Source: Barthelona sp. PCE (Eukaryota). Taken from it: a stretch of DNA of 64,000 bases. Positions 33,796 to 59,280 of this stretch are shown one piece after another. The position numbers and the translations under genes are program-made. Numbering within the stretch: position 1 is the first letter of the stretch; the number at the start of each line of letters is the position of its first letter. The notes beneath the pieces were generated by a model. It was not told where the DNA came from. It did no database searches and was given only the letters and a program-made list of their open reading frames with translations. The stretch covers positions 1,488,001 to 1,552,000 of the forward strand of contig JAUFOR010000002.1 in NCBI GenBank assembly GCA_040285745.1. Reading direction: 5' to 3'.

Positions 33796-35826
33796 TTATT
33801 TATCTGTTGGTATTATTTCATTAACTGAAAACTCAAATTCTTCAAAGATTCTTTCAAAACTTATATTTTCAAGACTCACATTCGCTCCAAAATTATTTTT
33901 TTTCAATCCTGTAAATTCAACATGTCTAATCAAGAACCCTTCCTTTGAACTAACTTCGCTGTCAATGATATGTAGTGTCATATGTGATGTAAACATTTTC
34001 TTTCGGAAAGTATCTTTTAAACAATCCCTCTCACCCAAATACACTTCTTCAGAGATGATCCCACCCTGTACACTGTATAAGTACAGAGATGAAGCAAAAC
34101 AATTGAAAGAAATCCAACCGACAAAGGAAACTATCCTGGGCCCATCATATGTATTTAAAAAACCGTTTTCAATCATCAATAATCTTGAACTATGTTCAAA
34201 AAGCAGCAGAAGACATTTGTCGTCATAAGGAGATTTATGACAAGAGCGGATTCCAGGTAAAGTTTCATGTACTAATATACTATCACTTTCTTCATCGTAC
34301 AAAATAACCAAACCATGTGAACCGAACTGTGAGCAAAAACATACGTAGGTTTGCTCATCGGTGCAAAGTTTGTCTCTATATTCATCTTTATCTTCAAGAA
34401 TAAATTTTCCCCCTAATTCGATTGCTTTGTTCTCATCATTGAAGCACAAACGTTCATTTCTAAAGTAACAGCAGAATTCCTCAGTGTCTACACGTATTTC
34501 TGCATCAAAATTGTAAACAAAAGATTCAAATTCACCTTTATGCTTTGTTACAAATCCATGCTTGTCTCCTTTGGATAAATCGACTGATTCCCTAGTTTTT
34601 TCATCATGACTATCGTAAACTCCATTGTAAAAATCAACAATTACATAATTATTGGTTGGAAATACATTTAGCTGACTTGATTTATAAAGATGCGTAATGC
34701 TAAAGACTTTTTTTTCAACAAAATCGATAAATACTTCAGAATCAACCGTTTTGTAATGTATTTGATTGTTAATCACATCAAAATTTTCGATATTATAAAA
34801 ACAAACCGCTGAATTCTCAATATTGTTAAACTTGAAAAGACCAGATAATTCTTTTTGTCTTCCTAGAGCAAGCATTGGATGATATTTAAACTCTCCTCTC
34901 TTGATATCACTAAACATTTCTGGATCATTTTCTGATGAAATTGGAAAGAAGAGCATATCAAACCCATTACCAACTTGAACTTTTAATTCCAACTTTCCAT
35001 TAACGTACTTACAGTAATTTGAAACATCATCTCTAATGCAAAGCATAGTGAGTTCTGTTTTAGTAACTGTTAGTAGTACAAAATACTTAACACGTCTTGT
35101 TTCAACACTCTTAACTAAGTGACCTAAACTAATGTATTCAAGATATCTATTGACTAATACAAAAGAATTATGGGCGTAAATAGCACTAACTCCAAGGTTA
35201 GCTACACCTACTTGGGTAAAACCACTTCGGAAAGGCATTGTTGTTGTTGTTAATTTTGGAGTAATGAATTGAGCCCTAGTTGATTTTGACAAACAATAAG
35301 CAACGACACAAGAGTTCTCATCGTTGGTAGAGATCATTCCTTCACACAAAAATGTTAGCTTTTGCTCTCGAATATCATATGCAAAAGAACATGATGAATG
35401 CCCTTGTATTTCACAGAGTGCACTATGATCCCCAAAAAAGGTGTATATGATCACATCACGACTGAATACACAAACATTTGAGTCCATAAAAGAACGTGGT
35501 CCAACTACATGTGGAAGACTGTAATCAACAGTATCTATAACAGTGACATCAAAGTTCTGTTCAAGAGTATAAAAAGTTATGGAACCCGAAAGAGTGCTGC
35601 CGTTAAAATTGTTAAAAAATAGTGTACCATCAAAAGCTCTATGTAATGGAGCTAACTGTTCCCTTTCATGTGATAACTCCAGAAAACATACATCTTCGAT
35701 AACAGAGTTTTCATCAGTGTCTTCTAAAATAATAGATCTCACACTATTGATGTCTTTCTGAAGTCTAATAGGCTTTTCGATCCCATATGGAAATATCACA
35801 TTATCCCTTTGTACGCGTCGAGGCAT
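33796..35826 (-). CDS. Hypothetical beta-rich protein (676 aa), lineage-specific family
   Basis: Long AT-rich ORF; resembles the adjacent 674-aa ORF in length, N-terminus and C-terminus. Confidence 0.75.
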   Translation of the reverse strand: MPRRVQRDNVIFPYGIEKPIRLQKDINSVRSIILEDTDENSVIEDVCFLELSHEREQLAPLHRAFDGTLFFNNFNGSTLSGSITFYTLEQNFDVTVIDTVDYSLPHVVGPRSFMDSNVCVFSRDVIIYTFFGDHSALCEIQGHSSCSFAYDIREQKLTFLCEGMISTNDENSCVVAYCLSKSTRAQFITPKLTTTTMPFRSGFTQVGVANLGVSAIYAHNSFVLVNRYLEYISLGHLVKSVETRRVKYFVLLTVTKTELTMLCIRDDVSNYCKYVNGKLELKVQVGNGFDMLFFPISSENDPEMFSDIKRGEFKYHPMLALGRQKELSGLFKFNNIENSAVCFYNIENFDVINNQIHYKTVDSEVFIDFVEKKVFSITHLYKSSQLNVFPTNNYVIVDFYNGVYDSHDEKTRESVDLSKGDKHGFVTKHKGEFESFVYNFDAEIRVDTEEFCCYFRNERLCFNDENKAIELGGKFILEDKDEYRDKLCTDEQTYVCFCSQFGSHGLVILYDEESDSILVHETLPGIRSCHKSPYDDKCLLLLFEHSSRLLMIENGFLNTYDGPRIVSFVGWISFNCFASSLYLYSVQGGIISEEVYLGERDCLKDTFRKKMFTSHMTLHIIDSEVSSKEGFLIRHVEFTGLKKNNFGANVSLENISFERIFEEFEFSVNEIIPTDK

Positions 35827-36013: not shown

Positions 36014-38038
36014 ATGCCACGCAGTGTGCTTCAAGTGGGACAAAATTGCTCTTTTGAACGCGACAATGACCACATCTTTATTTTTCAGGAGGATGAAGTT
36101 GAAAGTCGCAATATGACATGTCAATTGGTATTTAACCACGACTGTGGCATCTGCATCCCTGAAATAGATGTTGCAATCAATCAATCAGAGCTTGTAGACA
36201 TGTATTCAAAACCATTGAAAGATTTGCGTCTTAAAAACGCTCTTTTGGATCGTAATATTCTGTACCGTGTTTTTCAGAGGTTTCTTGAAGGAGGAAGAAA
36301 TCAGATTTTTGTTGAAGTGTTCAAAAAGGATTTAAATGAATTTGTTCGCATCGACTTTCACACATTTGAAATTGATCAAGGTGGGGTTCGCTTTGTACTA
36401 ATAGATGAACATAGGTGGATGTATACAGTGCACAAAGAGATATATTATCATGACAAAAAGCTGAAGTATCATCACGTTTTTGAGTACCCTCGAATGAGAA
36501 ATGTGGACAATGGACACATAAGTGTTGGTGAAATAACAGAATGTGTTGCTCAAGATGGTATGATATATCTCATTGGTAGAGAAATTGTTTTTACAAATGG
36601 TGGATATGATACTCTCCCTGATGTTCCAAGAATACAACATAAACTTATTATTCCATGTGATGGGGCACCGTACTTCGATGAAAATCATCCTCTTATGGGA
36701 AGAATTTTTTTTTGTGTGGACAGAACACCAGAAAATAGTTTTTTCATTTTTAGACGTAAGGATGGTAAGTTTTTACGTAGTTTTGTCGATGAAAATACCA
36801 GAGGGGCAATGTTTAGGGCACTGGATAAACCATTTCCATCAAAAATTAATTCATTATCATGTGTTTGTATTTTTAAAGAAATTTTTCATTTCGCAATGGA
36901 GAATATATTCTTTTTTTCTTCAAAAGATAATCAGGATTTGAGGGTTTTAGGAGATAGTTTGGGAGAAGATCTGTTATTTATTGATGAGAGTGTTTTTCTA
37001 TATCAAAATGGTGAATATCATGAGATATTAAGCATTAAAAAATTTAATTGTTTATTCTTTATTGAGAAAGAGCAAGAATTCTATAGTTCAAAAGGTAATA
37101 TTCCTTACATGTTACCTTCACATGTTTCAATTACTTTTTTTGATTTTTACTCAAAACAAATCACAGTTTTTTTAACGAATCCTCAGAAAGAGGATAAGTT
37201 AGAGAAAATTTTTGCATATCACGTTAAGGACAGTGGACAATGGAAGTTTGGTCATGCAATTATAAAAAATGAAATGTTTGAAATGTATCTCGACAAGAAG
37301 TTTGTTGAAGGAACTCTTCCAATTTTTTATAATGAAAGAAAGGAGATTGCTTCATTGTATTTTAACAGCCATCACTGCGTCACTTTCGATGGTTTTAATG
37401 ATCTACTTTATATCGACAAAGGAACATTGGAATTACCAAGGTATTCCAGTTTTTGTTTACAAAACAACCGATTGTGGACTGTTACAGTCAATAAGCTTGC
37501 TTTAAGATCACTTCAAAGAAACAAAAGCAACAGTAGCGCTTGTTTATGTGATGAAATTGAATTTGATGAAGGATATCTCAGTATTTTTCCTAATCCTTAT
37601 GACTGTGATGAAGTTATCATAACACATAACGATGTAGCTATGTTTTTTGTTTCATATGATACAAAACAGAAGCAGCTTGTAAGTGTACCAATGGATGAGG
37701 TGTGTAATTACGGAGAACAACCAGTTTTTTTGGGAACTGGTATTTTTGCATATAGTAACCATGTTTATGATGTTAGTGATCCCGAATATGTTGTAATGGA
37801 AGAAATTCCTGAATGCAAAGGTCCATATATTATGTATTCACCTGAACCAACTGTATTAGTACGTTTACCAAACAAACTGGATGATTTTGTGATATTAATG
37901 AGTGTTTTTGTAATTACAAACGGTATTTCAAATATTTCTATGGAAGAAAAAACAATTAGTTTGAAACAATTCTTTGAAACAGCCGAATTGGAAATTGTAT
38001 CAAATTTTGGAAGTATAGGTAACCGTGTGTTTTCCTAA
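36014..38038 (+). CDS. Hypothetical beta-rich protein (674 aa), probable paralog of 33796-35826
   Basis: MPR start, PYD motif at a similar position, ISLKQFFE C-terminus. Confidence 0.75.
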   Translation: MPRSVLQVGQNCSFERDNDHIFIFQEDEVESRNMTCQLVFNHDCGICIPEIDVAINQSELVDMYSKPLKDLRLKNALLDRNILYRVFQRFLEGGRNQIFVEVFKKDLNEFVRIDFHTFEIDQGGVRFVLIDEHRWMYTVHKEIYYHDKKLKYHHVFEYPRMRNVDNGHISVGEITECVAQDGMIYLIGREIVFTNGGYDTLPDVPRIQHKLIIPCDGAPYFDENHPLMGRIFFCVDRTPENSFFIFRRKDGKFLRSFVDENTRGAMFRALDKPFPSKINSLSCVCIFKEIFHFAMENIFFFSSKDNQDLRVLGDSLGEDLLFIDESVFLYQNGEYHEILSIKKFNCLFFIEKEQEFYSSKGNIPYMLPSHVSITFFDFYSKQITVFLTNPQKEDKLEKIFAYHVKDSGQWKFGHAIIKNEMFEMYLDKKFVEGTLPIFYNERKEIASLYFNSHHCVTFDGFNDLLYIDKGTLELPRYSSFCLQNNRLWTVTVNKLALRSLQRNKSNSSACLCDEIEFDEGYLSIFPNPYDCDEVIITHNDVAMFFVSYDTKQKQLVSVPMDEVCNYGEQPVFLGTGIFAYSNHVYDVSDPEYVVMEEIPECKGPYIMYSPEPTVLVRLPNKLDDFVILMSVFVITNGISNISMEEKTISLKQFFETAELEIVSNFGSIGNRVFS

Positions 38039-38224
38039 ACTTGGTTCACACAAGTTAACTCTTTACCTTAATGTTAATGATTCTGTTCACTTTGAGATTT
38101 AAAATAGGAAAGTCGAATATTTTTTGTATCGTTCAGGGGACAAGTTTTACAATGATACCACAGCTTCACCCAAATAAATAATAAACACGTGTTTAAAAAT
38201 TTTCAACCTTTTCACCCTTTTAAG

Positions 38225-43332: not shown

Positions 43333-46300
43333 ATGTCGAACCGTGCAAGTATTGCTATCCCACCACCGACCGTTTTGCCACGCTCTGGGCTTACATTGGC
43401 AAGCAGTGAAGTATGTTTTTCTTTTCTGCGCATGATTTCGCATAATTTTATGTAGCACATTTACAGATGTGTTGATTAATCAAGTGTTCACACATTAACA
43501 TTGTGCTTGTGCATTATTCGAAACCTGTTCTTTTTTTAATTACACTAACTTTTAGAGAGGCGTAAAACACGAGTATCATGTGATGCAAGATGAATGGACA
43601 CAGACTGCAATCCTTGTAGAAATTGAAGAACGACCTTTTTCAGAAGGTGCTTTACGTTACGCATATAAGATGAAGGACTATTCACGCCCACAAAATGAAG
43701 CTTATGTTGCCAAGATGTCTAAGTACACAAATGAGGAGCGTGATACATACTTCCGTGATGTTAAGACACAGATGGTTGCCAAGGCTTTGGCTACAGAGTA
43801 CAATACACGTAATCCACCAAAAAAGGTTGCCTTTCTTGATGTGTATGTGTTAGAGTTAATCGACAGGCCAGGAAAGCAACTGTGCAGTGTTGAAAAATTC
43901 ATGCCTGGTGAGTACATCAAGCACAACAATAACTGGGACTTTGCCAGTGACGAACGTTTCACTCCTCAAGCTTTCTCTCACTTCACATATGAGTTTACCA
44001 AAGAGCTTATGGCTTGTAAGAAGGAGGGTCTGGCCCATCAATCGCCACTGTACAATTGCCCTGCACTGAAATGCCCTCTGCTTGTCTGTGATATTCAAGG
44101 TGTCGGAGATCACTACACTGATCCACAAATACAATCTGAGAGTGGAAAGGGATTCGGCAAGGCTGACTTGAGCCGACTGGGTATTCAAGCGTTTTTCCGT
44201 CGTCACAAATGTAATCAAATTTGTCGATTCTTAGGTCTCCCGTGTGTTGGAGAGTTCATTTCAGGCGAGTCCAGTGAGACAAGAATTGGTATGATGCAGA
44301 TGACGAGTGTCCCTGCTGGCATGTCCTCCAAGGATCTTTTCGACGCTGTTCAATTAGGATCTGTCGATGTCGTCAAGCGTATCGCTGTTTGGACCAACCA
44401 AAAGCTCACAGTCACCGATTCTAATGGTGACACAGCTCTTCATCTAGCGTCACGTCTGGGGCACATTGAAGTGATCGAGTTCCTGCTTAGTACAGGTTTG
44501 GAAGTTGATATCCTCAACCGCAATAAGCAAACACCTCTTTATTGTGCCGTATTGGCTGATCAAAAGAATGTTGTTGAGCTCTTATTACAACAAGAGACCC
44601 CAGCTAATGCAGACTTTTCATCCGTTAACGATTCAACACCGCTGGGTGAGGCAATCATGATGCAATCTGTGGAGATGGTTCGTGCTCTGCTCAACAATGG
44701 GGCATCCCCCATCAAGGCTCATTTGAATGGTGAGATACCAATTACTTCTGCAGCCAAGCTACACAACTCTGAGCTTGTCAAGATTCTCATTCAGTCGATT
44801 GTTACAAAGGGCTTGTCTATCGATACGCCCAACCAAGACGGAACAACAGGTCTGTTTGCCGCAGTGGCCACTAACGACATTGACCTTATCCAGCAGTTTG
44901 TTATATCAGGAGCAAATTTGTCACACAAAGATATGTACGGCAATACACCAATGTTTAGCAGCGATATTTCTTCCGCTGTTGTACGCTTCATGATATTACA
45001 CGGAGCGGCTGTTGACGAAGAAAATTTCAACGGTTACACACCTTACACACATGCATTCAGGTACTGTAACGTTGAGGCGGCTAAGGAACTACAGGACTAC
45101 TCGTCGCACATCCAGCCCGCCAAGGCAACGACACTCATGATCGAAATATGTGATGATCCTTCTTTGGACCACAAACGTGCAGTGGAGGCTGTCCGTATGT
45201 TGCTCAAGTTCGGTGCCATTGCTGTATCTGTTAGCGATGAAAATGAGTCCGCCCTTGAGCTAGCTATCATCAACCACCATATTGGTGTTGCCGAATTGCT
45301 GCTCGGTAGCAATGCTGAAATTAATGTTGAACAAGTTGACAGTCTTCTGGTACGTCTGTGCAAACAGAAGTACGACAAGGAGAGTGAGCTGTTGGGCATC
45401 AAAAAGAAAACCGTCGCTTGGATGGTTGAAAACCTATTTGCTAATGTTAATACAGTTGAGAATAACAAGAGCGTTCTTTACTTGGCTATTTTGAATGGTA
45501 ACCTCGGTGTAGCAACACTTCTCATCGAGTCTTCCGCCTCCCTATCGGAGGAGAGCTCCATTATCCTCTTACATGAGTTGATTACAACTGACGTTCATGT
45601 TTTCCCTGGCGAAATTGAGCACTTAATTGATTGTATTGAGTTTTTGATCTTATTCATGCAAGTGAACCCATGTGCTGTCAACCCCGTTGAACAGATGATG
45701 CCCATGTCTCCTTTAGAAATTGCAGTGCTCAATGTTAACCTTCCCATTGCTGCGAAGCTTGTTGAGTTAGGTGCATTTGTCGAACAAAGTGTTGTTGATT
45801 GGCTGTTATTGACTGTTTTATCTCAGAAAACCGAAAAAAAGAATAGGATCCAAATGGTTAAGTTTTTAATCGAGTCATGTGGTGCATCACCAAATGCAAT
45901 GAACGTAGAAACATATCAGACCGCGTTTGAATGTGCTATTTTTGGTGATCACATCTCTGAGGCACTTGCTCTTCTCGAGTTCGGAGCCGAGGTCGATCCC
46001 ACTGCACTGAACTTCATGCTATATGGTCTCGTCATGGATGATGCAGGAGATAAGCATGTAGATTCGATCAGATTCCTGGTTACAGAGATGGGTGCTGATG
46101 TGTCACTTCGTCACGAGAACAAATTCCTTTTCGATCACGCTGCAGAAAATGGAAGACTCGAGTTGTGTCTTGTCATTAAGGAATTGGGTGGGCCTGCATC
46201 CAACGCAAGCGTTCCACAACTGTTGCATTCATTGGCTGAGCATGTTACATTCGAAGCTGATGCAGATTATGTTGATCACATTATAGAGATTCTTAAAAAG

Positions 46301-47047
46301 ATCGAAAATCCAAATTCTCCGCTTGATAACTCCGATGTCACTTTGTTGCAACGCGCAGTGAGTCACGGAAACCTCATCATGTGTGGTTGTTTGAGCGCTG
46401 TGGATGTGAAGCCTGTAGATGATACAGAGGCAACCAAACTTTTAAGCCTTGCTATTGAAAGTGACAGTGAAGATATGTCGTTACTTCGCGTTATCAACTG
46501 GCTGGTTTCTGAGTGTGGTGCCAAGGTATGCGATCCAGTGCTAGATGGACGCAGCTGTCTACATGTTGCATGTGGTCGCAAATCAACTAAAAAAGTACGA
46601 TGGCTCATTGATGATATGCACGGTGATCCTAATTGTGCTGACTCGTTGAACAACCGCCCTTTACACGAGGCCATTGTCAACGGTAACGAAGAGATCACCC
46701 TGTTCTTAGTTTCTCGTGGTGCGGACATCAACTTGGAAAATAATTTTGGAATGACCCCTCTCAAAGTTGCTAATATGGTTCTAAGAGGAAAATTGACTCG
46801 TGCAGCTACCCGTTATCAAGAAGAGATTTCACGTCTCAATAACGCACAGGAGGCTGCCCAGTCTAAAGCTACTCTGTATTTGGAAGAATTGAAGAAGGCT
46901 ATTGTGGACGATAAAATTTCTTCAAAGGCTAAGCGTGCACTGCGTACGTATCGCAGAGAAAATGACGTCAGCTCAGACGATCATAGAATGTGTCTTGAAT
47001 CACTGGGTTGGACCACCGACGACTATGATGATGGTGAAAAGCTGTAA
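43333..47047 (+). CDS. Alpha-kinase (eEF2K/MHCK-type) with ankyrin repeats; two exons, 43333-43410 and 43556-47047
   Basis: PFSEGALRYAY, VAK, HNNN, PQAFSHFTY, DIQGV, TDPQI, GFGKADL, H.CN.IC..L; many ankyrin repeats. Splicing gives the in-frame junction ...LASSE|RGVKHEYHVMQDEW. Confidence 0.92.
43411..43555 (+). other. Spliceosomal intron (145 nt, phase 0)
   Basis: 5' GTATGT; pyrimidine tract; branch ACTAAC at 43544-43549 followed directly by TTTTAG. Removal joins an ATG-initiated exon in frame with the kinase ORF. Confidence 0.88.
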
Positions 47048-47084: not shown

Positions 47085-49130
47085 TTAGAACAATTCTTCC
47101 ATTGTAAAGGTTCTCTTTTCCGTTTCTTTGCCAAACAGATCACTCATATTGATCATTTTCCCTAATTTCTGACTCTCAACAATATTCTCTGTATATTTAG
47201 CACGTTCATACTCTATTATATTGCGCATACTCTCAACCATTGAACCGAATTCTGTTAAGGAGTATTCATCAAAAATTGAATCAAAATCATCAACATGTAA
47301 TGTGTTAAGAAGGTTTCTTACTTCTATTGCGCTACTAACTTTTGATTCATTTGTCTTAAGAGAATCTGGAAGATAGTCCTCCAATTCACCTCTGAACAAA
47401 ACAAATACACCTTGTGCATACAGTAATTGTATTAACTGAGTCCAAACAGTAAGCATGCTCTCATCTGAAAAGATGTGATGCATTACAGAAGCATGACTAT
47501 ATGTCATCTGAGAAGCAATGCCCTCTGTCTTTGATCTAACTAAGTTAAACAGATCATTTGCATTCATGTTACTATTCACCATCTCCATTTCAAGCTCACG
47601 AAGCATATTAAACATGTTGAACTGTACTCTCTTGTCACTTATACGCTCCGTTGAGAATGCTGAAGCATGTTCGGTCATCATCGTGTGGAATTGATCAAAC
47701 ACTTCAGCGAGTTCCTGATCATAATCAACAAACTGAGGTAATGTATCACAGCTGAATATTGCATCAGCATCAACCAATACAAAAGGTACGCAACCGGCGT
47801 TTGCAAAGAAAGCCTTGGCCGATGCTATCATTCCTTTTCCACTAACGTTAATGACACTAAAGGCATGTGTATCAATTGTGTATCCCATCATTCTCTTGAA
47901 GAGAACGTTGAAGACCATATAGTCTGTGATACCTTCAACAATGAGCACACTATCACATTGCATACCTTCAATAGCACGAGGCAGCATCAACACACTTGAT
48001 AAAAACGCAACCTCTCTTGAACCGAAACGAAGTGTATATGGGACGATATAATCACCAATGCGCTTCAAGTTAACAATTGAAAATTGGAAATCATCAACGT
48101 GAGAAAGCGAAACAACTCTTGGTGACATCTTGGCTGTTGTGATAAAAATGCTACTAACTCCACTATCGGCCATAAAGAGCAGATTGATCAGCAATTGCAT
48201 ACATTGCTCTGTCAGGTCATCGTCAAATCCCATGCCGAAATTGTCTATAAAAAGATACATACCTCTTTGTGCACGCGGCACATCTTTCACATCCACCATC
48301 TCATTTGTGTCAACATACTGCATCACGCACTTGGAAACAAAGGAACTAAGACCAAGAACAGATCTCTGAGATGTTGACATATCGCTTCCTTGAATAATTG
48401 TATCATTGTTCTCAATGCATAATGATGCACTTTTAATGAGATCGTCGACAGTGGGTAGATTGAAACGCAGTCGAAGACGTGTTTGTGGATATATTTGATT
48501 AAAGTAGTTTGACACAACTTCTTCAAATGAAGCTATTGCTTCCATGCGGTTGTTATCGTCATTAAACACTTTGTTGAGCTCTTCCAGAGGTTCTTCACAC
48601 TCTACTTCAAAATCAAAGTACTGTAAATACTTCAAAAAAGATTTAAACATATCCTCTCCTTCATTCTTCTCGTTCATATCAAAGAAACACACCTGAGGGA
48701 ATATATTCATAATATGTGTGCCAAAGTTGCTGATTTCAAACATTGAATCATCCCTGGTAAGATAGAGACAATCCTCATACAGATTAACATCAACCCTTTC
48801 CGGTGTGAATGTTCGTCTGAAACACAACTGGCCCCCAATTGTGTACTCGCTAAGTGTTTGACCCTCTCCCTCAGCCTGAAAAATAGACTGCAACAATAAA
48901 TGTTCTTCTTCGCTAAAATAGACGTTAAATGAGAGTGAAAGCTGTTGATTGAGGCCTTCTAGCATTCCATGGGACTTTGTAGGATAATCTAAAAGCGCTA
49001 TTTGAAGTGTTTTCAAAAAGTTGGTCTTTCCGACTGTACTTCTCGATGTAATAATATTAAAAAGCATAATATCAGACCAGTGATAGCCGGTTGCCCAACC
49101 TTCGCATGAAATTGATCGTAATTCTGGCAT
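47085..49130 (-). CDS. OLD-family ATP-dependent endonuclease-like protein (ABC-ATPase fold plus TOPRIM)
   Basis: Walker A-like SRSTVGKTNFL; signature-like SDMSTSQRS; Walker B-like LFIDN; TOPRIM VLIVEGITDY, VINVSGKG, VLVDAD; C-terminal GELEDYLP. Confidence 0.8.
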   Translation of the reverse strand: MPELRSISCEGWATGYHWSDIMLFNIITSRSTVGKTNFLKTLQIALLDYPTKSHGMLEGLNQQLSLSFNVYFSEEEHLLLQSIFQAEGEGQTLSEYTIGGQLCFRRTFTPERVDVNLYEDCLYLTRDDSMFEISNFGTHIMNIFPQVCFFDMNEKNEGEDMFKSFLKYLQYFDFEVECEEPLEELNKVFNDDNNRMEAIASFEEVVSNYFNQIYPQTRLRLRFNLPTVDDLIKSASLCIENNDTIIQGSDMSTSQRSVLGLSSFVSKCVMQYVDTNEMVDVKDVPRAQRGMYLFIDNFGMGFDDDLTEQCMQLLINLLFMADSGVSSIFITTAKMSPRVVSLSHVDDFQFSIVNLKRIGDYIVPYTLRFGSREVAFLSSVLMLPRAIEGMQCDSVLIVEGITDYMVFNVLFKRMMGYTIDTHAFSVINVSGKGMIASAKAFFANAGCVPFVLVDADAIFSCDTLPQFVDYDQELAEVFDQFHTMMTEHASAFSTERISDKRVQFNMFNMLRELEMEMVNSNMNANDLFNLVRSKTEGIASQMTYSHASVMHHIFSDESMLTVWTQLIQLLYAQGVFVLFRGELEDYLPDSLKTNESKVSSAIEVRNLLNTLHVDDFDSIFDEYSLTEFGSMVESMRNIIEYERAKYTENIVESQKLGKMINMSDLFGKETEKRTFTMEELF

Positions 49131-49181
49131 TCGTTTTTGTAGAAAAGATGAAATCTGAATAACGAGTTTTTATATGTTTAT

Positions 49182-52100
49182 TCACATGGTCATAGGTAGT
49201 TCTGCCTGCACTATGGCTAAGGCATCCGTTTTGTTCCCCTTCTTAGCAATACTTACCTTCAATTCTTCATCATATTCCACAATGAAGTGAAAATCACATA
49301 CTTCAATGAGTTCATCTCTAAAACTGGTAATAAAGAACTGAGGGCCACCATCTGCTAATGACTCTATCAAATTGGCTACAGCACTACGATAAAGACTGTC
49401 TAAATTAGCATCGACTTCATCTAAGCAAAAGAATGGCACCGTATTAACTGAATGCATGCTGAGAATGAGTGCCAGGGATAACACAGTCTTCTGGCCTCCT
49501 GATAGAGTGCTCAAATTCTGACGACCAAGTCCATATGTAACTTGCACATCAAAACCCATAATTTCTGATGCATCAATCTCAACGTCATCATCAACGTTAA
49601 TTTCCTCACCATCCTGCATGTACATGATACATTCTGCTGTTCCACGGGGCTCAAGCTGTAAGAAAAGTTGTTTAAATTGTTCTGAAACTTTGTTAATAGC
49701 TGAGATGATTCTGGTTCCACGCTGACCGTCCAAGTGATCAATAAGTTCCTCAAGGCGATCGAAATCTCGCTCAAGCATCTCCTTACGTTCCTGTAGGCGC
49801 CTGTTTTCCTCAACAAAGCTGTCGTATTTACCAATTGCAGTCTTTGAGACGCCAGACATTTCAAACTCCTTAACAGCGTTCTGTGCACGCCTCAGGTGGT
49901 TGTCGAGCTCCTCGTTGGAAATTGTGGGGTCGATATCAACGTCAATAGTAGCCTGCCCAATCTGACGTAACCGTAACTCATTATCCCTAATCTGGGATTT
50001 CAGTAACGCGATGCGGTACAGCACACTGTCTAGTTCACCGGAATCGTCCGTCGTCCGTTGTCTGAGGGAGAGCTCGTGGGCCTTGTAACCATCATACTCA
50101 ACCAACATTCGCTGGTTTTCAGCATGCAGCTCATCAAGTTTGTTAGTGAGATCGCTGTTTTGTGCCTCAATTTCAACAAGATACTCAGTGATATGACTAA
50201 GTTGCTCCTTGAGCTCAGTAATGACAGACTCCTGTACGTATTGTGTATCATGTCCCAAACTCATTGATCCTTGTGACCAACCAGCATTATTGGACTTGCG
50301 TTGCTCAAGGTCGCTCAGCAATTGCTCGACAACAGACATTTCAGCAATGAGACTGTTGATGCCGATCCTCTTTGATACTATATCATCTGAAAGGACACTG
50401 CGCTCTATCATAAGCGCGTCAATATCAGACTGCATCGTTCGAACATGTACGTGCTGTGAATCTAGATCTACGTTCTCCACATCAGCATTGCGGAACAACT
50501 CTATCTTCATTTCAAGCTTCTTATGCTCCTCCTCGGCTTGATAAACACGCTGTTCGTGAGCAAATGACGCGTGAGTCTTCTCACTAAGCTGCTCCTGCAC
50601 CTGCCTGATACCGTCGCGCAGCTCCAACAATTCGCTTTGTGCGACATGTAATGCCTTTCTCTTTTTAGCCACGCGATTGATGTGGTTCTCGTGCGATACG
50701 CGAGCTGACGACAGTTTACGCCCGATTTCCTCCAGTCTGGTCTCAATATCACTGACTGAGTCATGTACCTCCTGAATGGCGGCAGCATGCTGCATACGCG
50801 AAATACGATATGCGTGACCACCGCGAATCTCACCTGTTGAGAACGCTCTATCACCCTCTAAACTGACAATATCGCACCGAAGTTCACGACCTATGTCGAC
50901 ACCGCGACGCATATCGTCAACTAACAAAACCTTACCGAAAAGATGACGGAGGAGAATTGGATACTCGCATTCAACAAAGTCCATTAGTGAGACCGCCTCT
51001 TCTGGGTCGTCGTGTATGACTTTGCGTGGTGGCGAGAGCTCGCTAAGAGGAATAAATGTAACACGCATGCCTCTCTTGGCTGCAATCTCGTCAAGAAGTG
51101 GTTCAAGACCGTCAAGGGACTTACACACAATCGAAAAAAGTTGTGTACCCGCTACCATCGAAACTGAAGTCATGAATTCGACTGAACAGTTTAAAAGTGA
51201 GTAAACCGGACCGATAACGTTATCAAACCCACTCTCACTCTCAACACGTGACATTACATACTCGACACCCCTTTGGACATTACCTGGGGCCGTTCTAAGC
51301 AGGTTAGCACGCAACTCCTTCAGCTTCTGTTTGGGACCAGCAAGCTCACTTTGTAACTGCAACCGTTCTGTCTTGAGCCGTTGGTAATCTTGTGTGCTTT
51401 CTTGCGTCGACTCCATGAGTCTAAGCTCCATACGAAGATCAATGATTGAAGAATTCAACTCTTTCTCCTTTACCTCCATATCCGACATCTGTCGCGTCAG
51501 CTCAGTTACAGCCTCTGTACACTCTGCCAGGACAGCTTTCAGAGCGTCAACACCAAGATCATCCATGGTTGCTGTCAACTCAGTAATCTGGTTCTCAACA
51601 AAAGTAACACGTTCTTCGACAGTTGCAAACTGTAGGAGATACATGCGATCCTCAAGCACAGAAAGCACGGCTTTGCGCTCTGATATACGAGAGTTGACCT
51701 CGTTTAATTGATGATTGAGACTTTCCATGACTGAATTTGATTTTTCAATCAATCGCTTGAGTCTACGTTGCTCACTCGTTAACTGCTTCTCCTCTGAAGA
51801 ATCATGACGTACCCTCTCATTTTGGATTCGCAAAGTCGTCTCTAAATCCTTAATTTTAAGAGATAAACTGGCTTTCTCCTCGGTTAATGCAAGAACCCTT
51901 TTAAAAAAAAAGTCTTGTTCATTCTCATAATTCGCTATCTTGAATTTTATCTCTGCACGGCCGTCCTCAACCATTCCAATCTTTGCATGGAGATCATCAA
52001 TCGACTCAAATAACCCGGAACTCTTCTCCAGGAACGATGCTTTCTTCTCTTCCAATTCCTCAGTTTCGCGTGAGAAAGACAGAAGAAGACGCTCGATCTT

Positions 52101-52778
52101 AATGGTCTCATATGTTTTCACCTTCAAATCAAGCATCTTCCATTCCTTATACACAGCTTCTTCCTGTTCCAAATGCTTAAGCTTCTCCTTAAACCTATCA
52201 AGGATACCGTCAATGCGCTGAATACGATTGCGCTCTTCCTGTAGCTTCTTCAATGAAACCTTTCGCCTGTCTAAGTACGTTTTTGTCCCACTAATCGTTT
52301 CAATAAGATGCAATTTTTCTTTGGGTCGATAATTTGCAATCTCTGTAATAGAGTTCTGTTTGATGATGTAAAAAGGGTTGGAGCTCATAAATCCACTGCT
52401 GGTTAAAAGCTGAGAAATCTCAGAATAATTCTTTCGTGAACCATTAATAAAGTATTCGTCCTTCTTAATACCTAGAACACGTTTGAGTTCAACTTCATCC
52501 TCATCCAAGAGGAAACTCCTGTCTGTGTTGTCTATAATAACTGCAACAGAACAACTAAGCTGACGATGCCCTGATGTGTCATAAATGAGTACTTTCCGGC
52601 GTTCTTGACTGATACGTCGATAATCTTCCCCAAACAAAAACCGTAAAGCAAGAATAACGTTACTTTTTCCCGATCCATTAAAACCTACAATTGAATTGAT
52701 AGCTGGAGAAAAATCTCCAACAATAGTCTCATCTTTGTAGCTTCTGAAGCCTCGTAAAATGATTCTTTTTATGTGCAT
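49182..52778 (-). CDS. SMC3: Cohesin subunit SMC3
   Basis: MHIKRIILRGFRSYKD, GFNGSGKSN, GIKKDEY (acetylation KK), NPFYIIKQ, hinge, LSGGQKT, LDEVDANLD..YR.AVA. Confidence 0.92.
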   Translation of the reverse strand: MHIKRIILRGFRSYKDETIVGDFSPAINSIVGFNGSGKSNVILALRFLFGEDYRRISQERRKVLIYDTSGHRQLSCSVAVIIDNTDRSFLLDEDEVELKRVLGIKKDEYFINGSRKNYSEISQLLTSSGFMSSNPFYIIKQNSITEIANYRPKEKLHLIETISGTKTYLDRRKVSLKKLQEERNRIQRIDGILDRFKEKLKHLEQEEAVYKEWKMLDLKVKTYETIKIERLLLSFSRETEELEEKKASFLEKSSGLFESIDDLHAKIGMVEDGRAEIKFKIANYENEQDFFFKRVLALTEEKASLSLKIKDLETTLRIQNERVRHDSSEEKQLTSEQRRLKRLIEKSNSVMESLNHQLNEVNSRISERKAVLSVLEDRMYLLQFATVEERVTFVENQITELTATMDDLGVDALKAVLAECTEAVTELTRQMSDMEVKEKELNSSIIDLRMELRLMESTQESTQDYQRLKTERLQLQSELAGPKQKLKELRANLLRTAPGNVQRGVEYVMSRVESESGFDNVIGPVYSLLNCSVEFMTSVSMVAGTQLFSIVCKSLDGLEPLLDEIAAKRGMRVTFIPLSELSPPRKVIHDDPEEAVSLMDFVECEYPILLRHLFGKVLLVDDMRRGVDIGRELRCDIVSLEGDRAFSTGEIRGGHAYRISRMQHAAAIQEVHDSVSDIETRLEEIGRKLSSARVSHENHINRVAKKRKALHVAQSELLELRDGIRQVQEQLSEKTHASFAHEQRVYQAEEEHKKLEMKIELFRNADVENVDLDSQHVHVRTMQSDIDALMIERSVLSDDIVSKRIGINSLIAEMSVVEQLLSDLEQRKSNNAGWSQGSMSLGHDTQYVQESVITELKEQLSHITEYLVEIEAQNSDLTNKLDELHAENQRMLVEYDGYKAHELSLRQRTTDDSGELDSVLYRIALLKSQIRDNELRLRQIGQATIDVDIDPTISNEELDNHLRRAQNAVKEFEMSGVSKTAIGKYDSFVEENRRLQERKEMLERDFDRLEELIDHLDGQRGTRIISAINKVSEQFKQLFLQLEPRGTAECIMYMQDGEEINVDDDVEIDASEIMGFDVQVTYGLGRQNLSTLSGGQKTVLSLALILSMHSVNTVPFFCLDEVDANLDSLYRSAVANLIESLADGGPQFFITSFRDELIEVCDFHFIVEYDEELKVSIAKKGNKTDALAIVQAELPMTM

Positions 52779-53106
52779 TGGTCGAAAAGGGTAAGAAAAT
52801 TGGAAATCGAAACGAACAGTTAACAGCTGTGTATTTAAATTTACTTGCAAAAAGATCCATCCATGTATAGCTGTCGCAGATTTCCACTTACTTAAACTGA
52901 AATAGAAGAGTAAATCTTAAAGATAATTCATATATGTGCTAAATTACTTTTTTGCAATGAAAAAACATCATCAACTCGTGTAATAACGCCAAGAACCTTT
53001 TTTAAAAGGAATAAAATCCACAAAAAATTCAACAAATGGAAGAAAAACAGAATATATCAATAATATGGTTTCTTTACTGCAAATTTAAAGGTCAATACAA
53101 GCGAGA

Positions 53107-55338: not shown

Positions 55339-58300
55339 ATGAGTTTCTTTCGACCAAGCAACCGAGCACCGTCATTCATTGAGAGAATCAGAGACCCTTC
55401 TGAAACTCGAAAAGCACTCTCCTCATTATATAAGGATCTTAAGCGCAATGGGCGATCTTCAACCATATTTCAGAATTACACATCGAGGAGTCCAGAGCTC
55501 ATTGAACTTTTTAGTTTGTTGAGTGACAATATTGACTCTAATCCTTTGTTAAGCGTATTTTCGCTGAAGTGTATTGCATATTGCGTTAAATATACATCCA
55601 CTAGCACAGGCCAGAAGGCCATTATCACCAACATCAAAAGAGCATATCCATTCATCTCAAAACTGTTCAATAATACTGAGCATATACAGAATGCAGGAGC
55701 CGTTTTCGAACTCATTACTTGTGTTCCTGAGGGTCCCATCATCTACGACCTCATCGGCATACTGAAGAAGATTAACATGTTACACCTTGATGTATACAAA
55801 TTTAGTGGTAAACCCACAAGTCGTCGAGCATATGTTGAGTGTGTTCATCGTCTACTTTCCTTACGTATTGGTAACTTTTTCATCAAATACAGCTTCTTCT
55901 TACCATTTTTGAAGGGTATTAAGTTTGATAACCAGGGTTTTGAAGAAAGTTATGCTATCTTTGAGTCCATTATTGATCATATTAAGAACACTGACGTTCC
56001 CGCTAACCAGCTCATCTTTATTGACAGTGAGTTCTTCCTCGCTCTCATCGCGTTCAAGAGACATGATGTTTTAGTCGAAAAATGCAACATTTTGATTTCT
56101 GAATTAATTGGTATTGCTAAATTACCACTGTATGCGACGTACACGGAGCAAATCCCATCTGTGGTGAGCTCCCTGAGTGCAGAGCAGAAACTGCATGTCT
56201 TTAAGACACATAAACACTTATTGCTTCCTTTCATTGAACAGTATAGATACACAGATAAAGTAACAGATAACTCACCAGAAATAGTTCAACGCCTTGATTT
56301 TCTGACAAGCATCCTTTTGTTGGTCAAGCGTCAGAGAATCACTCTGTTGAAGGAACAGTGTGCCTTCCTCAATCTTCCATTCCTTAGTCAGTGTCTCAAG
56401 AACAAGGAGTACTTCAAGTTCGTTATCGTTCTTCTTGACGTATTCTTTGATGTTTATTCCGGCATAATTTCGGATGTTCTGAACTGCAGTATATTTAAGA
56501 TTGTGAAAAAGAATGTTGTTAGTGGGACTGTTACACCCAATGAGCATCCTTTTCTCTTTACATTTTTACAGAAGGCTTTCAGAATCTACCCTTCCATCGT
56601 GCATTACTTTGACAATGTGAAAGTTTTCTTTGAAGTTGATGATGATATCTTCACAAATTCAGTTTACTTAGACTTCCTTATCTCTCTGCTTTCTGCTTAC
56701 GGAAAAGCTGTTCTGGACCACACAACAATCTCTGTTCTCATACAGAGAGTCACACGTCTTTATGAGACTGATGGCTTTGTTCTATCCGATCCCTTCTTCA
56801 ATGTTATGAAGTTAATGAACACAGTCACCGCACTTAACATCCCACAGATCATTTTAGTCGCCCCTATCATGTTTATGCTCACGGTTAACCCATCATTCAG
56901 GAATGAACTATTCGGTGCGTTACCGGTCATGTATGATCTCATTTTTACAACAACAAATGCTTTTGTTTTAGATGAATGTGTTGTGTTTATTTCAAAGTAT
57001 CTTTCTGCTTCTTTTGTTGAAAAGATTCAAACTTTCTTCAACACCCCTTCTGAAACAATTAGTGCACAATATCAAGCTATGCAATACGGTTACTTACCAT
57101 ACTTGTACTGCCTATTTCTGCAACTCGGACGTGAAACTGAGGAAACTGAATTGGACCGTAGACAGCGCAAACCAATCCTTCGTGATATTTCAAAGTGCCT
57201 TACTGCCATCAAGAAGGCTAAGAAAGACAGTGTTTCCAATTGTTTCATGCGCAACTTCGCCCCCTCTCTTGCAGAGATGTTCTTGTCCTTTTACAGCAAA
57301 TACTCTCGTCAGTTCTTCCTTGGTAGACTCGGTTCATTCAACACTCTTTTCTATCACTATGATCAGTGCACGGTTTTGAAGCACTGCGCCCTTCTCGGCG
57401 ATGAAATTGATCCAGAGCTGTGGTTGGCACATCCTCGTGCCCTTGAACTCCTCATAGATGATATGGAAAAAGTTACTGTATTCGATGTGAGTGAGATTGC
57501 CAGCCTGTGCCTCACTATGCCAGCTTTTTGGTCTGAGGAGTGTATCCGCTACCTTGTTCCCCGTGCCTCAACTATACCTTTCAACTTCCATCCTTACACA
57601 GAGGAGAACAAACCACTTTTCGTTGGATTCATGGATCAGTACGATCATGACACGAGGAAACTCGCACTGTCATCTCTTCTCATGCACTTTGATTGGGAAT
57701 TCGACGAGCTGAACTTTGATGAGATTTTTAGCCAACCTCCCACTAATGATTACACCAAGCTTGACATGTTTACACATTACATATTCGAGACACTCGTTTC
57801 GATTGACGGTATTCGTATCGCTATTAAGAAGCTGGTGGGTCTTCCAGTGTTCTTTGCAGAATTCACTGTCGATACCATCATCAAGGTGCTCCGAAAAATT
57901 GAAAACGACAGCGTACCTCTCAAGCGTATGGATATATCCATTGATCTTGAGCCAGCTTTCCTTGTTGAACTGTGTCGCATTGCTGAGAGCAAGCCAACAC
58001 ATGTTGTCAATTTCTTCGTTGAGAATGAAATGTATGAAGAGATTTTTGCTGTCTTGCAGTTCGAGCCGGAGTTGTTCACAAAACTTGGTGAGCTTCCTAT
58101 TGGAGAACTTTCCCTTTCACTTGATCACATGCGCAAGAGTTCTGTCGCTCCTTTTCTCTTCAATACAGGTGCCGAATCTGGATTTGAACCCTGTAACAAG
58201 GATTTTTCCGTTGCAGTCGATATTCCTGAGTTATTATTGAATCCTGTTCTGACGAAGAATAATGTTCACAAAACAATCAACGCTCTTCCTGCATTGGACA

Positions 58301-59280
58301 TGTTTATGAACGGCAAGAAATTGGATTTGTTGAATGTTGACAAACACATATTTGATACAACAACCATAGTCAACTATGAACTTTTTGTTCTCAACTTTGC
58401 CTATTTAGCAAACTTATATGGTCTACCAGAAAATATTGAAGATCAGCTCGTTACTATCGTCCTTCCACTGGCCATTATCGGTCTTTCAAGCGGAAAGATG
58501 TTTGTTCGTCGTGCTTGTGGTTACATTGTTGGTGCAACTGTGCAATATTTAAAACAGGAGTCCGTTAAGATGCCCCGGAAGCATCGTGTGACAAAGGTTA
58601 TACGTGCTGCTCAGCAGTTGATGGATAACAACCACCAATTGTGTCTCTTTGACGCCAGTTTCCTCGCCGAGTCAGTGTTTGTAGTCTCCGCGCAGGCACA
58701 CTCATGCAAAATGTTTGTTGAAAAGACGCTTGAATCATGTGAAAAGACATTACAGAGCAAGAAGTATTCTTTCATCACAAAAATGCTCTTTGCCTACGAT
58801 ACACTTGATACGAAAGGCAAAGATCAGCGCCAGTTCATACTCAGCATCAGTAACGCACTTGACGAACATAGCATCCAGAGCGTTGGTCTTTTGGACTTTT
58901 ACATTGGTTGTTTGGATGCACATGAGCGTATCGATCACCGTTTGCTCCGTAATGTGTTCCGTAACATATATCTTCTTCTTGTCAATGACCGAACATCTGA
59001 TCTTATTGAAAAGTACAGTTTCCACCTCGTATTGCGCCAGTTAAACAGAGATCATCCACTCCTATCTTTGATGAGTGATAGCACAAAGAACAGATTCTTT
59101 AACAGAACTAGGAATGATATCGTTGTTGCTAACTTTGAAGGCTTATCTTGTTCTGCTGATTATTTGGTTGAAGCTGCTGAATACGATATTAATATTCATA
59201 ATGCTATTAAAATTGCTAAAAATGGTGTTATGGATGCTAAGAGTTATGCATTTTATAGTGATTTGCTTAATCATAGTTAA
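55339..59280 (+). CDS. Helical-repeat protein, probable URB1/Npa1 (ribosome biogenesis)
   Basis: 1313 aa. N-terminal SPELIEL...RRAYVE..FLKGIKFD and C-terminal LAIIGLSS..MFVRRACGY resemble the Npa1 and NopRA1 regions. Confidence 0.5.
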   Translation: MSFFRPSNRAPSFIERIRDPSETRKALSSLYKDLKRNGRSSTIFQNYTSRSPELIELFSLLSDNIDSNPLLSVFSLKCIAYCVKYTSTSTGQKAIITNIKRAYPFISKLFNNTEHIQNAGAVFELITCVPEGPIIYDLIGILKKINMLHLDVYKFSGKPTSRRAYVECVHRLLSLRIGNFFIKYSFFLPFLKGIKFDNQGFEESYAIFESIIDHIKNTDVPANQLIFIDSEFFLALIAFKRHDVLVEKCNILISELIGIAKLPLYATYTEQIPSVVSSLSAEQKLHVFKTHKHLLLPFIEQYRYTDKVTDNSPEIVQRLDFLTSILLLVKRQRITLLKEQCAFLNLPFLSQCLKNKEYFKFVIVLLDVFFDVYSGIISDVLNCSIFKIVKKNVVSGTVTPNEHPFLFTFLQKAFRIYPSIVHYFDNVKVFFEVDDDIFTNSVYLDFLISLLSAYGKAVLDHTTISVLIQRVTRLYETDGFVLSDPFFNVMKLMNTVTALNIPQIILVAPIMFMLTVNPSFRNELFGALPVMYDLIFTTTNAFVLDECVVFISKYLSASFVEKIQTFFNTPSETISAQYQAMQYGYLPYLYCLFLQLGRETEETELDRRQRKPILRDISKCLTAIKKAKKDSVSNCFMRNFAPSLAEMFLSFYSKYSRQFFLGRLGSFNTLFYHYDQCTVLKHCALLGDEIDPELWLAHPRALELLIDDMEKVTVFDVSEIASLCLTMPAFWSEECIRYLVPRASTIPFNFHPYTEENKPLFVGFMDQYDHDTRKLALSSLLMHFDWEFDELNFDEIFSQPPTNDYTKLDMFTHYIFETLVSIDGIRIAIKKLVGLPVFFAEFTVDTIIKVLRKIENDSVPLKRMDISIDLEPAFLVELCRIAESKPTHVVNFFVENEMYEEIFAVLQFEPELFTKLGELPIGELSLSLDHMRKSSVAPFLFNTGAESGFEPCNKDFSVAVDIPELLLNPVLTKNNVHKTINALPALDMFMNGKKLDLLNVDKHIFDTTTIVNYELFVLNFAYLANLYGLPENIEDQLVTIVLPLAIIGLSSGKMFVRRACGYIVGATVQYLKQESVKMPRKHRVTKVIRAAQQLMDNNHQLCLFDASFLAESVFVVSAQAHSCKMFVEKTLESCEKTLQSKKYSFITKMLFAYDTLDTKGKDQRQFILSISNALDEHSIQSVGLLDFYIGCLDAHERIDHRLLRNVFRNIYLLLVNDRTSDLIEKYSFHLVLRQLNRDHPLLSLMSDSTKNRFFNRTRNDIVVANFEGLSCSADYLVEAAEYDINIHNAIKIAKNGVMDAKSYAFYSDLLNHS

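Follow-up and report, generated by a model that had tools for sequence, protein, structure and literature searches.

A single-copy OLD-family gene with a complete TOPRIM nuclease site and a degenerate ATPase site on a chromosome of the protist Barthelona sp. PCE

The stretch of Barthelona sp. PCE DNA analysed here, 64,000 nucleotides long and hereafter called the window (assembly GCA_040285745.1, contig JAUFOR010000002.1, positions 1,488,001 to 1,552,000 of the forward strand), carries, between an alpha-kinase gene and the gene for cohesin SMC3, a complete gene for a protein of the OLD family, in which an ABC-type ATPase is followed by a TOPRIM nuclease domain. An initial annotation, made from the letters alone, had placed an open reading frame (ORF) for a laterally acquired, OLD/GajA-like nuclease at this position, with an intact TOPRIM and a degenerate ATPase. 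Position, minus strand and length of 681 residues were exact, and the motifs it had named are all present: VEGITD at residues 398-403, VDADA at 453-457, GELEDY at 581-586, IDNFG at 295-299 and TTAKMS at 331-336. The reading which we prefer, and regard as rather probable, is that of a chromosomal, single-copy OLD protein of the Class 1 type, with an intact nuclease, a non-hydrolysing head acting as latch or sensor and a likely origin in a prokaryote or phage, divergent since then.

The alpha-kinase gene is convergent with the OLD gene, the two stops being 37 bp apart, and Pfam recognises many ankyrin repeats after its kinase domain. On the other side, a spacer of 51 bp separates the stop of SMC3, which lies upstream on the same strand, from the OLD ATG. 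SMC3 was identified by its matches to full-length solved SMC3 chains from human and from fission and budding yeast (E about 1e-93, the best SMC2 reaching 3.5e-44). Other ORFs of the window encode Cfap43, Mo25, LMBR1, an SLC35F-type transporter, cathepsin C, PCMT and an amino-acid transporter. The locus is a gene-dense segment of a eukaryotic chromosome, composed of genes with single long ORFs, in an organism with flagellar genes: Pfam, the solved SMC3 chains and the eukaryotic genes of the window all bear out the setting described initially. The host contig measures 2,128,580 bp, and the window is free of N.

That the ORF encodes a genuine full-length OLD-family protein, ABC ATPase first and TOPRIM after it, is confirmed, Pfam, PADLOC, hhalign, Foldseek and VIA-align being in agreement. 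Pfam detects OLD-like_TOPRIM (PF20469) at residues 393-456 with 45.7 bits (cutoff 23.2, E 9.8e-12), and the PADLOC "Old" model matches at E 3.5e-25, five GajA models giving values from 2.2e-7 to 1.3e-3. Searched exhaustively by phmmer, 1.84 billion representative proteins yielded 23 at E<=1e-3, the query among them; the best of the others scores 44 bits (E 1.1e-6, 23% identity), and none closer was found among the representatives. PF20469 is present in all 22 non-self matches and AAA_15 in 20 of them, with scores of 8.6e-12 to 2.1e-42, the two exceptions being fragments of 215 and 274 residues. When compared by hhalign with an alignment of 16 OLD proteins, the protein matches at 99.75% probability (E 2.2e-27) over 550 columns; because this match spans residues 24-634, the ATPase half is homologous too. 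In the alignment, its N-terminus lines up with that of the family. An NCBIfam search returned no family at E<=1, and single-sequence phmmer against PDB sequences found no OLD match, only a chance match at E 0.23. A profile built from the protein and 16 relatives, searched against solved structures, recognised as best match the Class 1 OLD of Thermus (6P74, E 1.4e-49), with GajA at about 1e-31.

Ten of the match clusters were looked up. Two carry organism names, Limimonas halophila and a large E. coli cluster including "Overcoming lysogenization defect protein", which at 586 residues is as long as P2 Old; for the remaining eight, the sources are metagenomes and no organism is named. Pairwise BLASTP to the E. 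coli/P2 Old cluster gives 22% identity over 269 residues (E 2e-10). A profile search with the alignment added 43 OLD proteins, five of which have source names: four Alphaproteobacteria (Sphingobium, Agrobacterium, Aurantimonas and Pedomonas) and one compost metagenome. By profile and by gene context, the protein is nearer to P2 Old, a stand-alone Class 1 member, than to Gabija GajA: of the initial label "OLD/GajA-like", the assignment to the OLD family holds and GajA is the top structural match (see below), while profile and context favour P2 Old.

Catalytic residues were mapped through P0009, the alignment row of the P2 Old cluster, whose numbering agrees with the published P2 residues; column counts refer to the 44 other rows of a 45-row alignment. 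In P2 Old, alanine substitution of any of K37, D299, H306, H332, E398, D453, D455, E402, D541, E543 and K550 is reported to abolish the killing of recBC cells, and the assignment of TOPRIM residues to metal A and metal B is taken from the same report (PMC7049728). All six acidic metal ligands of the TOPRIM domain are retained in the mapping (Table 1). The exact motif GELED is common to the OLD protein and to two divergent metagenome proteins, P0010 and P0012.

The ATPase site is different. The Gly-Lys-Thr end of Walker A is kept, but its first Gly is replaced by Ser29 and the family Asn by Ser31, each invariant in the 40 rows filled at these columns. Walker B retains its Asp, and the catalytic Glu and the H-loop His, found in 44 of the 44 other rows, are here Asn297 and Met335; the initial annotation had noticed a change in both motifs. 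The Walker B register is moved by one residue in hhalign; the Glu is absent in either register. In the ABC signature, hhalign pairs the family G-x-G-x-Q-R with M-S-T-S-Q-R. Loss of the residues for ATP hydrolysis concerns a catalytic feature and is no criterion of homology; the protein would be a divergent OLD member with a head predicted to be non-hydrolysing. As judged from the aligned motifs, "intact TOPRIM, degenerate ATPase" is a correct description, the degeneration being specific to the hydrolysis residues.

Table 1. Coordinates of the OLD gene, its domains and motifs and other features of the window, with residues matched to those of P2 Old
Feature	Position in window	Strand	Residues of the OLD protein	Basis
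Complete OLD-family gene	47085..49130	minus	681 codons plus TAA, ATG start, no intron required	ORF list, alignment, hhalign
ABC-type ATPase head, including helical insert	47961..49130	minus	1-390	hhalign; model matches SMC, Rad50 and GajA heads, Z 16-18
Walker A	49023..49046	minus	29-36; Gly34, Lys35, Thr36 kept	K in 40/40 filled rows
Helical insert in ATPase ("dimerization domain" of OLD proteins)	48381..48722	minus	about 137-250	helices in model
ABC signature remnant	48360..48383	minus	250-257; Gln-Arg kept, both family glycines replaced	hhalign
Walker B and D-loop region	48219..48260	minus	291-304; Asp296 kept	column counts
H-loop	48120..48140	minus	331-337; Met335 for His, insertion of two to three residues	same pairing in hhalign
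TOPRIM core	47763..47954	minus	393-456; metal A Glu399, Asp454, Asp456; metal B Asp403	PF20469, column counts
Second acidic TOPRIM motif (GELEDY)	47373..47390	minus	581-586; Glu582 and Glu584	P0009 mapping
C-terminal tail without counterpart in relatives	47088..47228	minus	635-681	hhalign ends at residue 634; pLDDT <50 over 648-678
P2 Old K37, Walker A			Lys35	K in 40/40 filled rows
P2 Old D299, Walker B			Asp296	E or D in all other rows
P2 Old E300, catalytic Glu			Asn297	E in 44/44
P2 Old P301 and E302, after Walker B			Phe298 and Gly299	P in 42/44; E in 42/44
P2 Old H306, D-loop His			Asp303	H in 42/44
P2 Old H332, H-loop His			Met335	H in 44/44
P2 Old E398, TOPRIM metal A			Glu399	E in 44/44
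P2 Old D453, TOPRIM metal A			Asp454	D in 44/44
P2 Old D455, TOPRIM metal A			Asp456	D in 43/43 filled rows
P2 Old E402, TOPRIM metal B			Asp403	E or D in 44/44
P2 Old D541, TOPRIM metal B			Glu582	variable column
P2 Old E543, TOPRIM metal B			Glu584	E in 14/16 rows of closer 17-row alignment
CTTTTC motif, 17 nt upstream of OLD ATG, inside the 51-bp spacer	49142..49147	minus		motif scan
Alpha-kinase with ankyrin repeats, convergent neighbour	43580-47047	plus		Pfam Alpha_kinase E 1.1e-45, Ank_2 E 3.5e-63
Cohesin SMC3, upstream neighbour	49182..52778	minus, same as OLD		SMC_N and hinge domains (Pfam)
Unmatched ORF	6109-9600	minus		
Unmatched ORF	31887-33758	plus		
Unmatched ORF	33796-35826	minus		
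Unmatched ORF	36014-38038	plus		
Unmatched ORF	55339-59280	plus		
Unmatched ORF	61129-63735	plus		

For structure prediction by AlphaFold2, 45 of 66 sequences were used as input, leaving out three short fragments and 18 near-duplicates of the second set. The model has a mean predicted local distance difference test (pLDDT) score of 73.1 and a predicted template modelling (pTM) score of 0.71, while prediction from the single sequence was unusable, with a pLDDT of 34.5. The TOPRIM core is the most confident part, at pLDDT 85-93 in 10-residue blocks over residues 381-480. The top Foldseek matches in the PDB are OLD-family chains only: GajA 8u7i (E 7e-17, template modelling (TM) scores 0.50/0.54), retron-Eco8 OLD 9lpa (8.3e-16), GajA 8sm3 (1.9e-15) and Thermus scotoductus OLD 6p74 (9.9e-13). 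VIA-align superposes model residues 2-644 on GajA 8x5i_B with Z 18.1 and a root-mean-square deviation of 6.4 A over 488 aligned residues; identity to GajA is 10-12% in both comparisons. Heads of SMC, Rad50 and cohesin proteins reach Z 15-17, covering model residues 2 to about 390 only. An ESM Atlas model of the same protein has a pTM of 0.73, and its ten listed neighbour clusters all combine AAA_15/AAA_21 with OLD_TOPRIM (TM 0.52-0.65) and are 90-100% bacterial, counting members with known taxon. Comparison with OLD and GajA by predicted structure and by profile, suggested in the initial annotation, gives a full-length match.

Residues 1-390, when predicted as a homodimer, score 0.58, the best of three controls reaching 0.02. 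For comparison, proteins solved as pairs of one chain attain this mark in 21 of 30 cases, and those solved as single chains in none of 23. Between runs, at least 93% of contacts agree, and partner pLDDT is at least 77. The predicted interface is formed by residues 161-245 of the helical insert, plus 255-270 and 306-316, and solved OLD proteins are described as dimerizing via the same helical domain (PMC7049728; 10.64898/2026.07.10.737580). The score shows likeness, not binding, and may reflect memory of solved OLD dimers, because such complexes have been solved.

Domain lengths add a further element. The ATPase part, up to the TOPRIM Glu, measures 398 residues, compared with 391-399 in six full-length P2-like rows. 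The distance from D-x-D to the second acidic motif is 128 residues; it is 86-98 in P2-like rows and 126-131 in a second group, whose full-length members have about 700 residues and also match the Old-type profile. In its domain lengths the protein is a mosaic, with a P2-like ATPase part and the TOPRIM spacer of the 700-residue group. After the second acidic motif follow 98 residues, as against 44-81 in full-length relatives. Class 2 OLD proteins are described as about 50 residues longer in the TOPRIM region, owing to an extra helical insert: with its 128 residues the protein stands above the P2-like rows, and GajA and T. scotoductus OLD are structural matches of similar strength.

In a quick LG+G4 tree of 45 rows, the OLD protein is sister to a P2-Old-like clade of eight rows, with a support of 83 in the Shimodaira-Hasegawa-like approximate likelihood ratio test (SH-aLRT). 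In this tree and in a second one discussed below, the P2 Old cluster is the most identical row, at 18-19%, and the terminal branch of the OLD protein is the longest. Viral contigs searched with the OLD protein gave one pattern match and metagenome contigs 42, none of which was confirmed; tblastn against 50,697 phage records gave no match at E<=1e-3. Entry of the gene into the protist lineage from a prokaryote or a phage is likely, being the most economical reading of the distribution of matches.

In composition and codon use, the gene is typical of the window. After removal of a 5'-open duplicate and of two ORFs nested in larger ones from the 28 ORFs of the composition set, the OLD gene has a GC content of 0.380 and a GC content at third codon positions (GC3) of 0.365, the ranges for the 24 other ORFs of at least 200 residues being 0.326-0.498 and 0.253-0.516, respectively. 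Its codon-usage distance to the pooled rest, 0.090, is the 8th lowest of 25 (range 0.062-0.195). The gene is single copy: a cluster search at 90% identity returned only the OLD protein itself, and no paralog was found among 50%-identity representatives. A search for mobile-element boundaries around it found only repeats of 14-23 nt, 73-93% identical, which we judged to be due to chance. No helicase, reverse transcriptase or defence-type model matches any of the 24 other ORFs, flanks included, the only PADLOC matches among ORFs of the window being those to the ankyrin repeats of the alpha-kinase protein. The OLD gene stands alone in the window, with no adjacent helicase, retron or other defence partner.

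The gene is also preceded by a signal shared with its neighbours. Of 24 genes, 10 have the motif CTTTTC in the 60 nt before their first ATG, as against 4.0% of random 60-nt windows (binomial p 1.3e-8, a generous value, since the choice of motif followed inspection of the data and the background included more than intergenic DNA); OLD has it at -17 and SMC3 at -11. Further examples are found at 52789-52794 (minus), 11635-11640 (plus) and 38208-38213 (plus), and the motif often extends to TTTTCA[C/T]. A function as core promoter or initiator element in this organism is probable. The motif seems similar to the TCAYW initiator of trichomonads, whose signals the start and stop contexts also seem to resemble. 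Many stops have an A directly 3' (TAAA), or ATAAA a few bases on, as at 47085-47087 (minus), 47045-47047 (plus) and 49182-49184 (minus); the OLD stop, like those of many neighbouring genes, is directly followed by A. The pattern may correspond to a polyadenylation signal overlapping the stop.

With the Class 1 OLD proteins (P2 Old, T. scotoductus OLD 6P74, Vibrio cholerae Vc OLD and E. coli YbjD), the protein shares the organisation as a single gene without partners and the order of parts, an ABC ATPase with a helical dimerization insert and then TOPRIM; with P2 Old it also shares the best profile match, the length of the ATPase part and all metal-A and metal-B ligands. It differs from Class 1 in being encoded on a eukaryotic chromosome and in having lost the catalytic Glu, the H-loop and D-loop His and the signature glycines, and from the P2-like rows in the longer spacer between D-x-D and the second motif; its C-terminal tail is longer, and identity to the P2 Old cluster is only about 22%. 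Gabija GajA is the top structural match (8u7i, 8x5i_B) and offers a precedent for an OLD head that gates its nuclease by nucleotide without hydrolysis; on the other hand, no GajB/UvrD-like helicase gene lies nearby, no flanking ORF has a helicase domain, GajA profiles match far more weakly than Old (2.2e-7 against 3.5e-25) and structural identity is 10-12%. Cran1 of the archaeal Sulfolobales is similarly described as an OLD-family protein fixed in a cellular chromosome, outside classical phage defence; by its description it differs in keeping all active-site residues, in needing its ATPase site for nuclease activity and in a helical insert typical of non-Class-1 members (PMC12796447).

The initial annotation had taken OLD proteins to be essentially prokaryotic, a premise now out of date: OLD-like genes have been reported in protists of the SAR group (stramenopiles, alveolates and Rhizaria), Filasterea, chytrids and several invertebrate phyla (10.64898/2026.08.18.745644, bioRxiv, 19 August 2026). 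The protist copies of that preprint are described as single and intronless, without a GajB homolog and with conserved Walker A, Walker B and nuclease motifs. The present gene resembles them as an ATPase-TOPRIM gene in a eukaryotic genome, in its single, intronless state, in the absence of GajB and in its low identity to prokaryotic OLD proteins; it differs in that the hydrolysis residues, kept there by description, are lost here. The words Metamonada, Excavata, Discoba and Amoebozoa are absent from the main text of the preprint, and our host lineage possibly differs from those named in it. None of its eukaryotic proteins surfaced as a relative in the search of 1.84 billion representatives, an indirect result, as the library carries no names. 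Apart from this preprint, the literature searched contained nothing specific on OLD-family genes in protists or on their lateral transfer. An OLD gene in a eukaryote is no longer new; what distinguishes this one is the selective loss of hydrolysis residues together with the P2-Old-type profile affinity.

How might such a protein work? Thermus OLD and P2 Old are reported to degrade DNA in vitro (PMC10568477), Vc OLD to nick DNA (PMC12392090), and P2 Old to cleave tRNA after destabilisation of an autoinhibited tetramer (10.64898/2026.07.10.737580). The nuclease of GajA is described as inhibited by nucleoside triphosphates through the ATPase-like domain (PMC8136825), and GajA is tabulated as lacking ATP hydrolysis, Class 1 enzymes as hydrolysing ATP (PMC10568477). 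The ABC-ATPase head carries a helical dimerization domain as an insert, and behind it comes a TOPRIM nuclease domain whose two-metal site is complete, with Glu399, Asp454 and Asp456 as ligands of metal A and Asp403, Glu582 and Glu584 as those of metal B. Because these ligands are retained, and by comparison with characterised Class 1 members, we infer a metal-dependent, two-metal nuclease acting on DNA, by nicking or as an exonuclease, or on tRNA. The head, with Lys35/Thr36 and Asp296 kept, would bind nucleotide and dimerize, with ATP turnover predicted to be poor or nil; the initial prediction of ATP binding without hydrolysis is a fair one. It would be no hydrolytic engine but a regulatory latch or sensor controlling access to the TOPRIM, as described for GajA. 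By this analogy the protein is a probable stand-alone, dimeric nuclease gated by nucleotide binding. The acquisition would be old enough for the gene to have adopted the composition of the host and host-like flanking signals, with strong divergence afterwards. A role in defence against viruses or foreign DNA, or in the surveillance of aberrant DNA, is a guess. The roles put forward initially, antiviral, anti-transposon or in DNA repair, are likewise putative.

Various observations weigh against this reading. As to ancestry, the terminal branch of the OLD protein measures 2.86 substitutions per site under LG+G4; with a site-heterogeneous mixture model, in a quick tree of 23 of the 45 rows, it rises to 4.26 and the support for the P2-like grouping falls to 37. 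Phylogeny with prokaryotic homologs, as initially suggested, places the protein beside the P2-like clade, at a support of 83 and then of 37. The lateral origin rests on the distribution of matches, the best sister-group support being these 83 in SH-aLRT and 37 under the better model, and only two of the ten match clusters looked up carry organism names. The initial claim of lateral acquisition fits the data insofar as all named relatives are bacterial or phage P2 and no eukaryotic relative was found in the searches; it is weakened by the prevalence of unnamed metagenome matches, by a branch of 2.9-4.3 and by the weak placement. As to function, the N-terminal half has no match to a Pfam ATPase family, not even at E<=1, and MAFFT aligns the signature stretch differently from hhalign, which makes it the least certain of the motif assignments. 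In P2 Old, H332A and H306A are reported to abolish host killing (PMC7049728) and ATPase mutants to lose tRNA cleavage (10.64898/2026.07.10.737580). For E. coli YbjD, the ATPase domain is described as essential and the TOPRIM as dispensable. Since residues that matter there are lost, the OLD protein cannot work exactly as P2 Old or YbjD do; it would therefore work in a GajA-like, hydrolysis-independent way, or have lost OLD-type regulation. Purifying selection is not measurable on a protein without orthologs, and relaxed constraint, or a protein heading for loss, would look similar to the combination of an eroded ATPase and a long branch.

Two other accounts of its origin have to be considered. 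Given that the OLD family is overwhelmingly prokaryotic, contamination or a chimeric assembly might have put a prokaryotic gene between two eukaryotic ones. We regard this as extremely improbable: eukaryotic genes lie 37 and 51 bp away, in a window free of N and on a contig of more than 2 Mb; contamination is made unlikely by composition, codon use and the upstream motif, all of which match those of host genes; and a contaminant would normally have close bacterial relatives, whereas no bacterial protein more than 23% identical was found. The gene might also be a vertical inheritance: the archaeal ancestor of eukaryotes would have had an OLD-like gene, since lost almost everywhere else, a descent of the kind proposed in the preprint for an opisthokont OLD-like cluster (10.64898/2026.08.18.745644). 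The spread of OLD-like genes over SAR, Filasterea, chytrids and invertebrates, one cluster of which is reported to group with Promethearchaeota (10.64898/2026.08.18.745644), would fit such a history, as would the weakly supported placement of our protein. We nevertheless hold it to be very unlikely, as exhaustive phmmer found no match above 44 bits, the named relatives are bacterial or phage P2, the best profile match is the P2-type "Old" model, and the eukaryotic proteins of the preprint are set apart by the Walker B and other core motifs which they are described as keeping.

As regards function, the protein could be a domesticated housekeeping factor, recruited for a chromosome or cell-cycle task such as DNA-end processing or the control of replication or segregation rather than for immunity. 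Cran1, described as an OLD-family ATPase-nuclease that serves cell-cycle progression and not defence (PMC12796447), provides a parallel, and a single-copy gene of host-like composition, lying among housekeeping genes directly downstream of SMC3 and outside any defence island, would suit such a role. This is nonetheless quite unlikely in our view: the ATPase catalytic residues are gone, orthologs would be expected in relatives and none appeared among 1.84 billion representatives, and adjacency to SMC3 is expected by chance where spacers are 5-51 bp. Or the gene could be a decaying relic or a pseudo-enzyme, acquired once and under relaxed constraint, its frame open by chance or its product retained for a structural role only. 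Residues kept by 42-44 of 44 relatives are indeed lost, the terminal branch is the longest in both trees, Pfam sees no ATPase and the C-terminal tail is unmatched and of low confidence. Yet a frame of 2,046 nt runs without a stop, the six acidic TOPRIM ligands and the GKT of the P-loop are retained, the fold is confidently predicted (TOPRIM core at pLDDT 85-93), the predicted dimer interface falls in the same domain as in solved OLD proteins, and the degeneration affects only the hydrolysis residues of a single domain, a pattern that looks selective rather than random. We consider decay improbable on these grounds.

If the protein is indeed a latched Class 1-type nuclease, a more specific proposal can be made, which we put forward as doubtful: a P2-Old-type abortive-infection nuclease would have been independently captured and rewired, so that a non-hydrolysing sensor, nucleotide-latched or responding to nucleotide depletion or to DNA ends, releases the TOPRIM on viral or foreign nucleic acid, or on host tRNA in a suicidal response. 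If true, OLD immunity would have entered eukaryotes once more and separately, in a lineage outside those reported, with a hydrolysis-independent mode of action.

How innate immunity is assembled can be seen from immune modules of prokaryotes that persist in eukaryotes. Up to the 2026 preprint, OLD proteins were held to be prokaryotic, and the present locus is a further, well-anchored case: it lies between SMC3 and an alpha-kinase gene, on a contig of 2.1 Mb, with host-like codon use and flanking signals. The protein is at the same time a natural separation-of-function variant, its nuclease site intact and its hydrolysis residues gone. There is still debate on how the head of a stand-alone OLD protein controls its TOPRIM: ATPase residues are required in P2 Old, only the ATPase domain in YbjD, and GajA senses nucleotide without hydrolysis. 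A natural "mutant" at the catalytic Glu and the H-loop His offers a direct test of whether binding alone gates an OLD nuclease. If expressed and active, the protein would be a candidate antiviral factor in a protist group on whose immunity almost nothing is known.

A few further features of the window deserve mention. Some ORF ends are only 4 to 21 bp apart (40957/40962, 17840/17853, 39883/39899 and 23180/23202). Neither tRNA genes nor Rfam matches were found in the 64 kb. With the Mo25 protein as query, only the query itself was recovered at E<=1e-20, probably too strict a cutoff, and the cysteine-rich ORF gave no usable match in the Atlas. Every gene reads as one uninterrupted ORF; the genome is very compact and apparently intron-poor. 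A functional link between OLD and SMC3, both of which have ABC-type heads, was considered and rejected: only adjacency supports it, and every gene there adjoins another.

Six ORFs of 623-1,313 residues (Table 1) are matched by neither Pfam (E<=0.01) nor PADLOC, and may encode lineage-specific proteins. GC3 varies twofold among neighbouring genes, from 0.25 to 0.52; it is highest, and codon use most deviant, in a cysteine-rich, EGF/teneurin-like ORF (50-4942, plus) and in the cathepsin C gene (9871-11223, minus), with distances of 0.154 and 0.195. The spread may reflect an expression-linked codon bias. An unusual fusion is found at 17853-20915 (minus), where a family-2 glycosyltransferase domain and two H-type lectin domains are joined in one ORF of 1,020 residues. 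H-type lectins bind N-acetylgalactosamine (GalNAc), and the product, to judge by its domains, might make or bind a polysaccharide of the wall or cyst.

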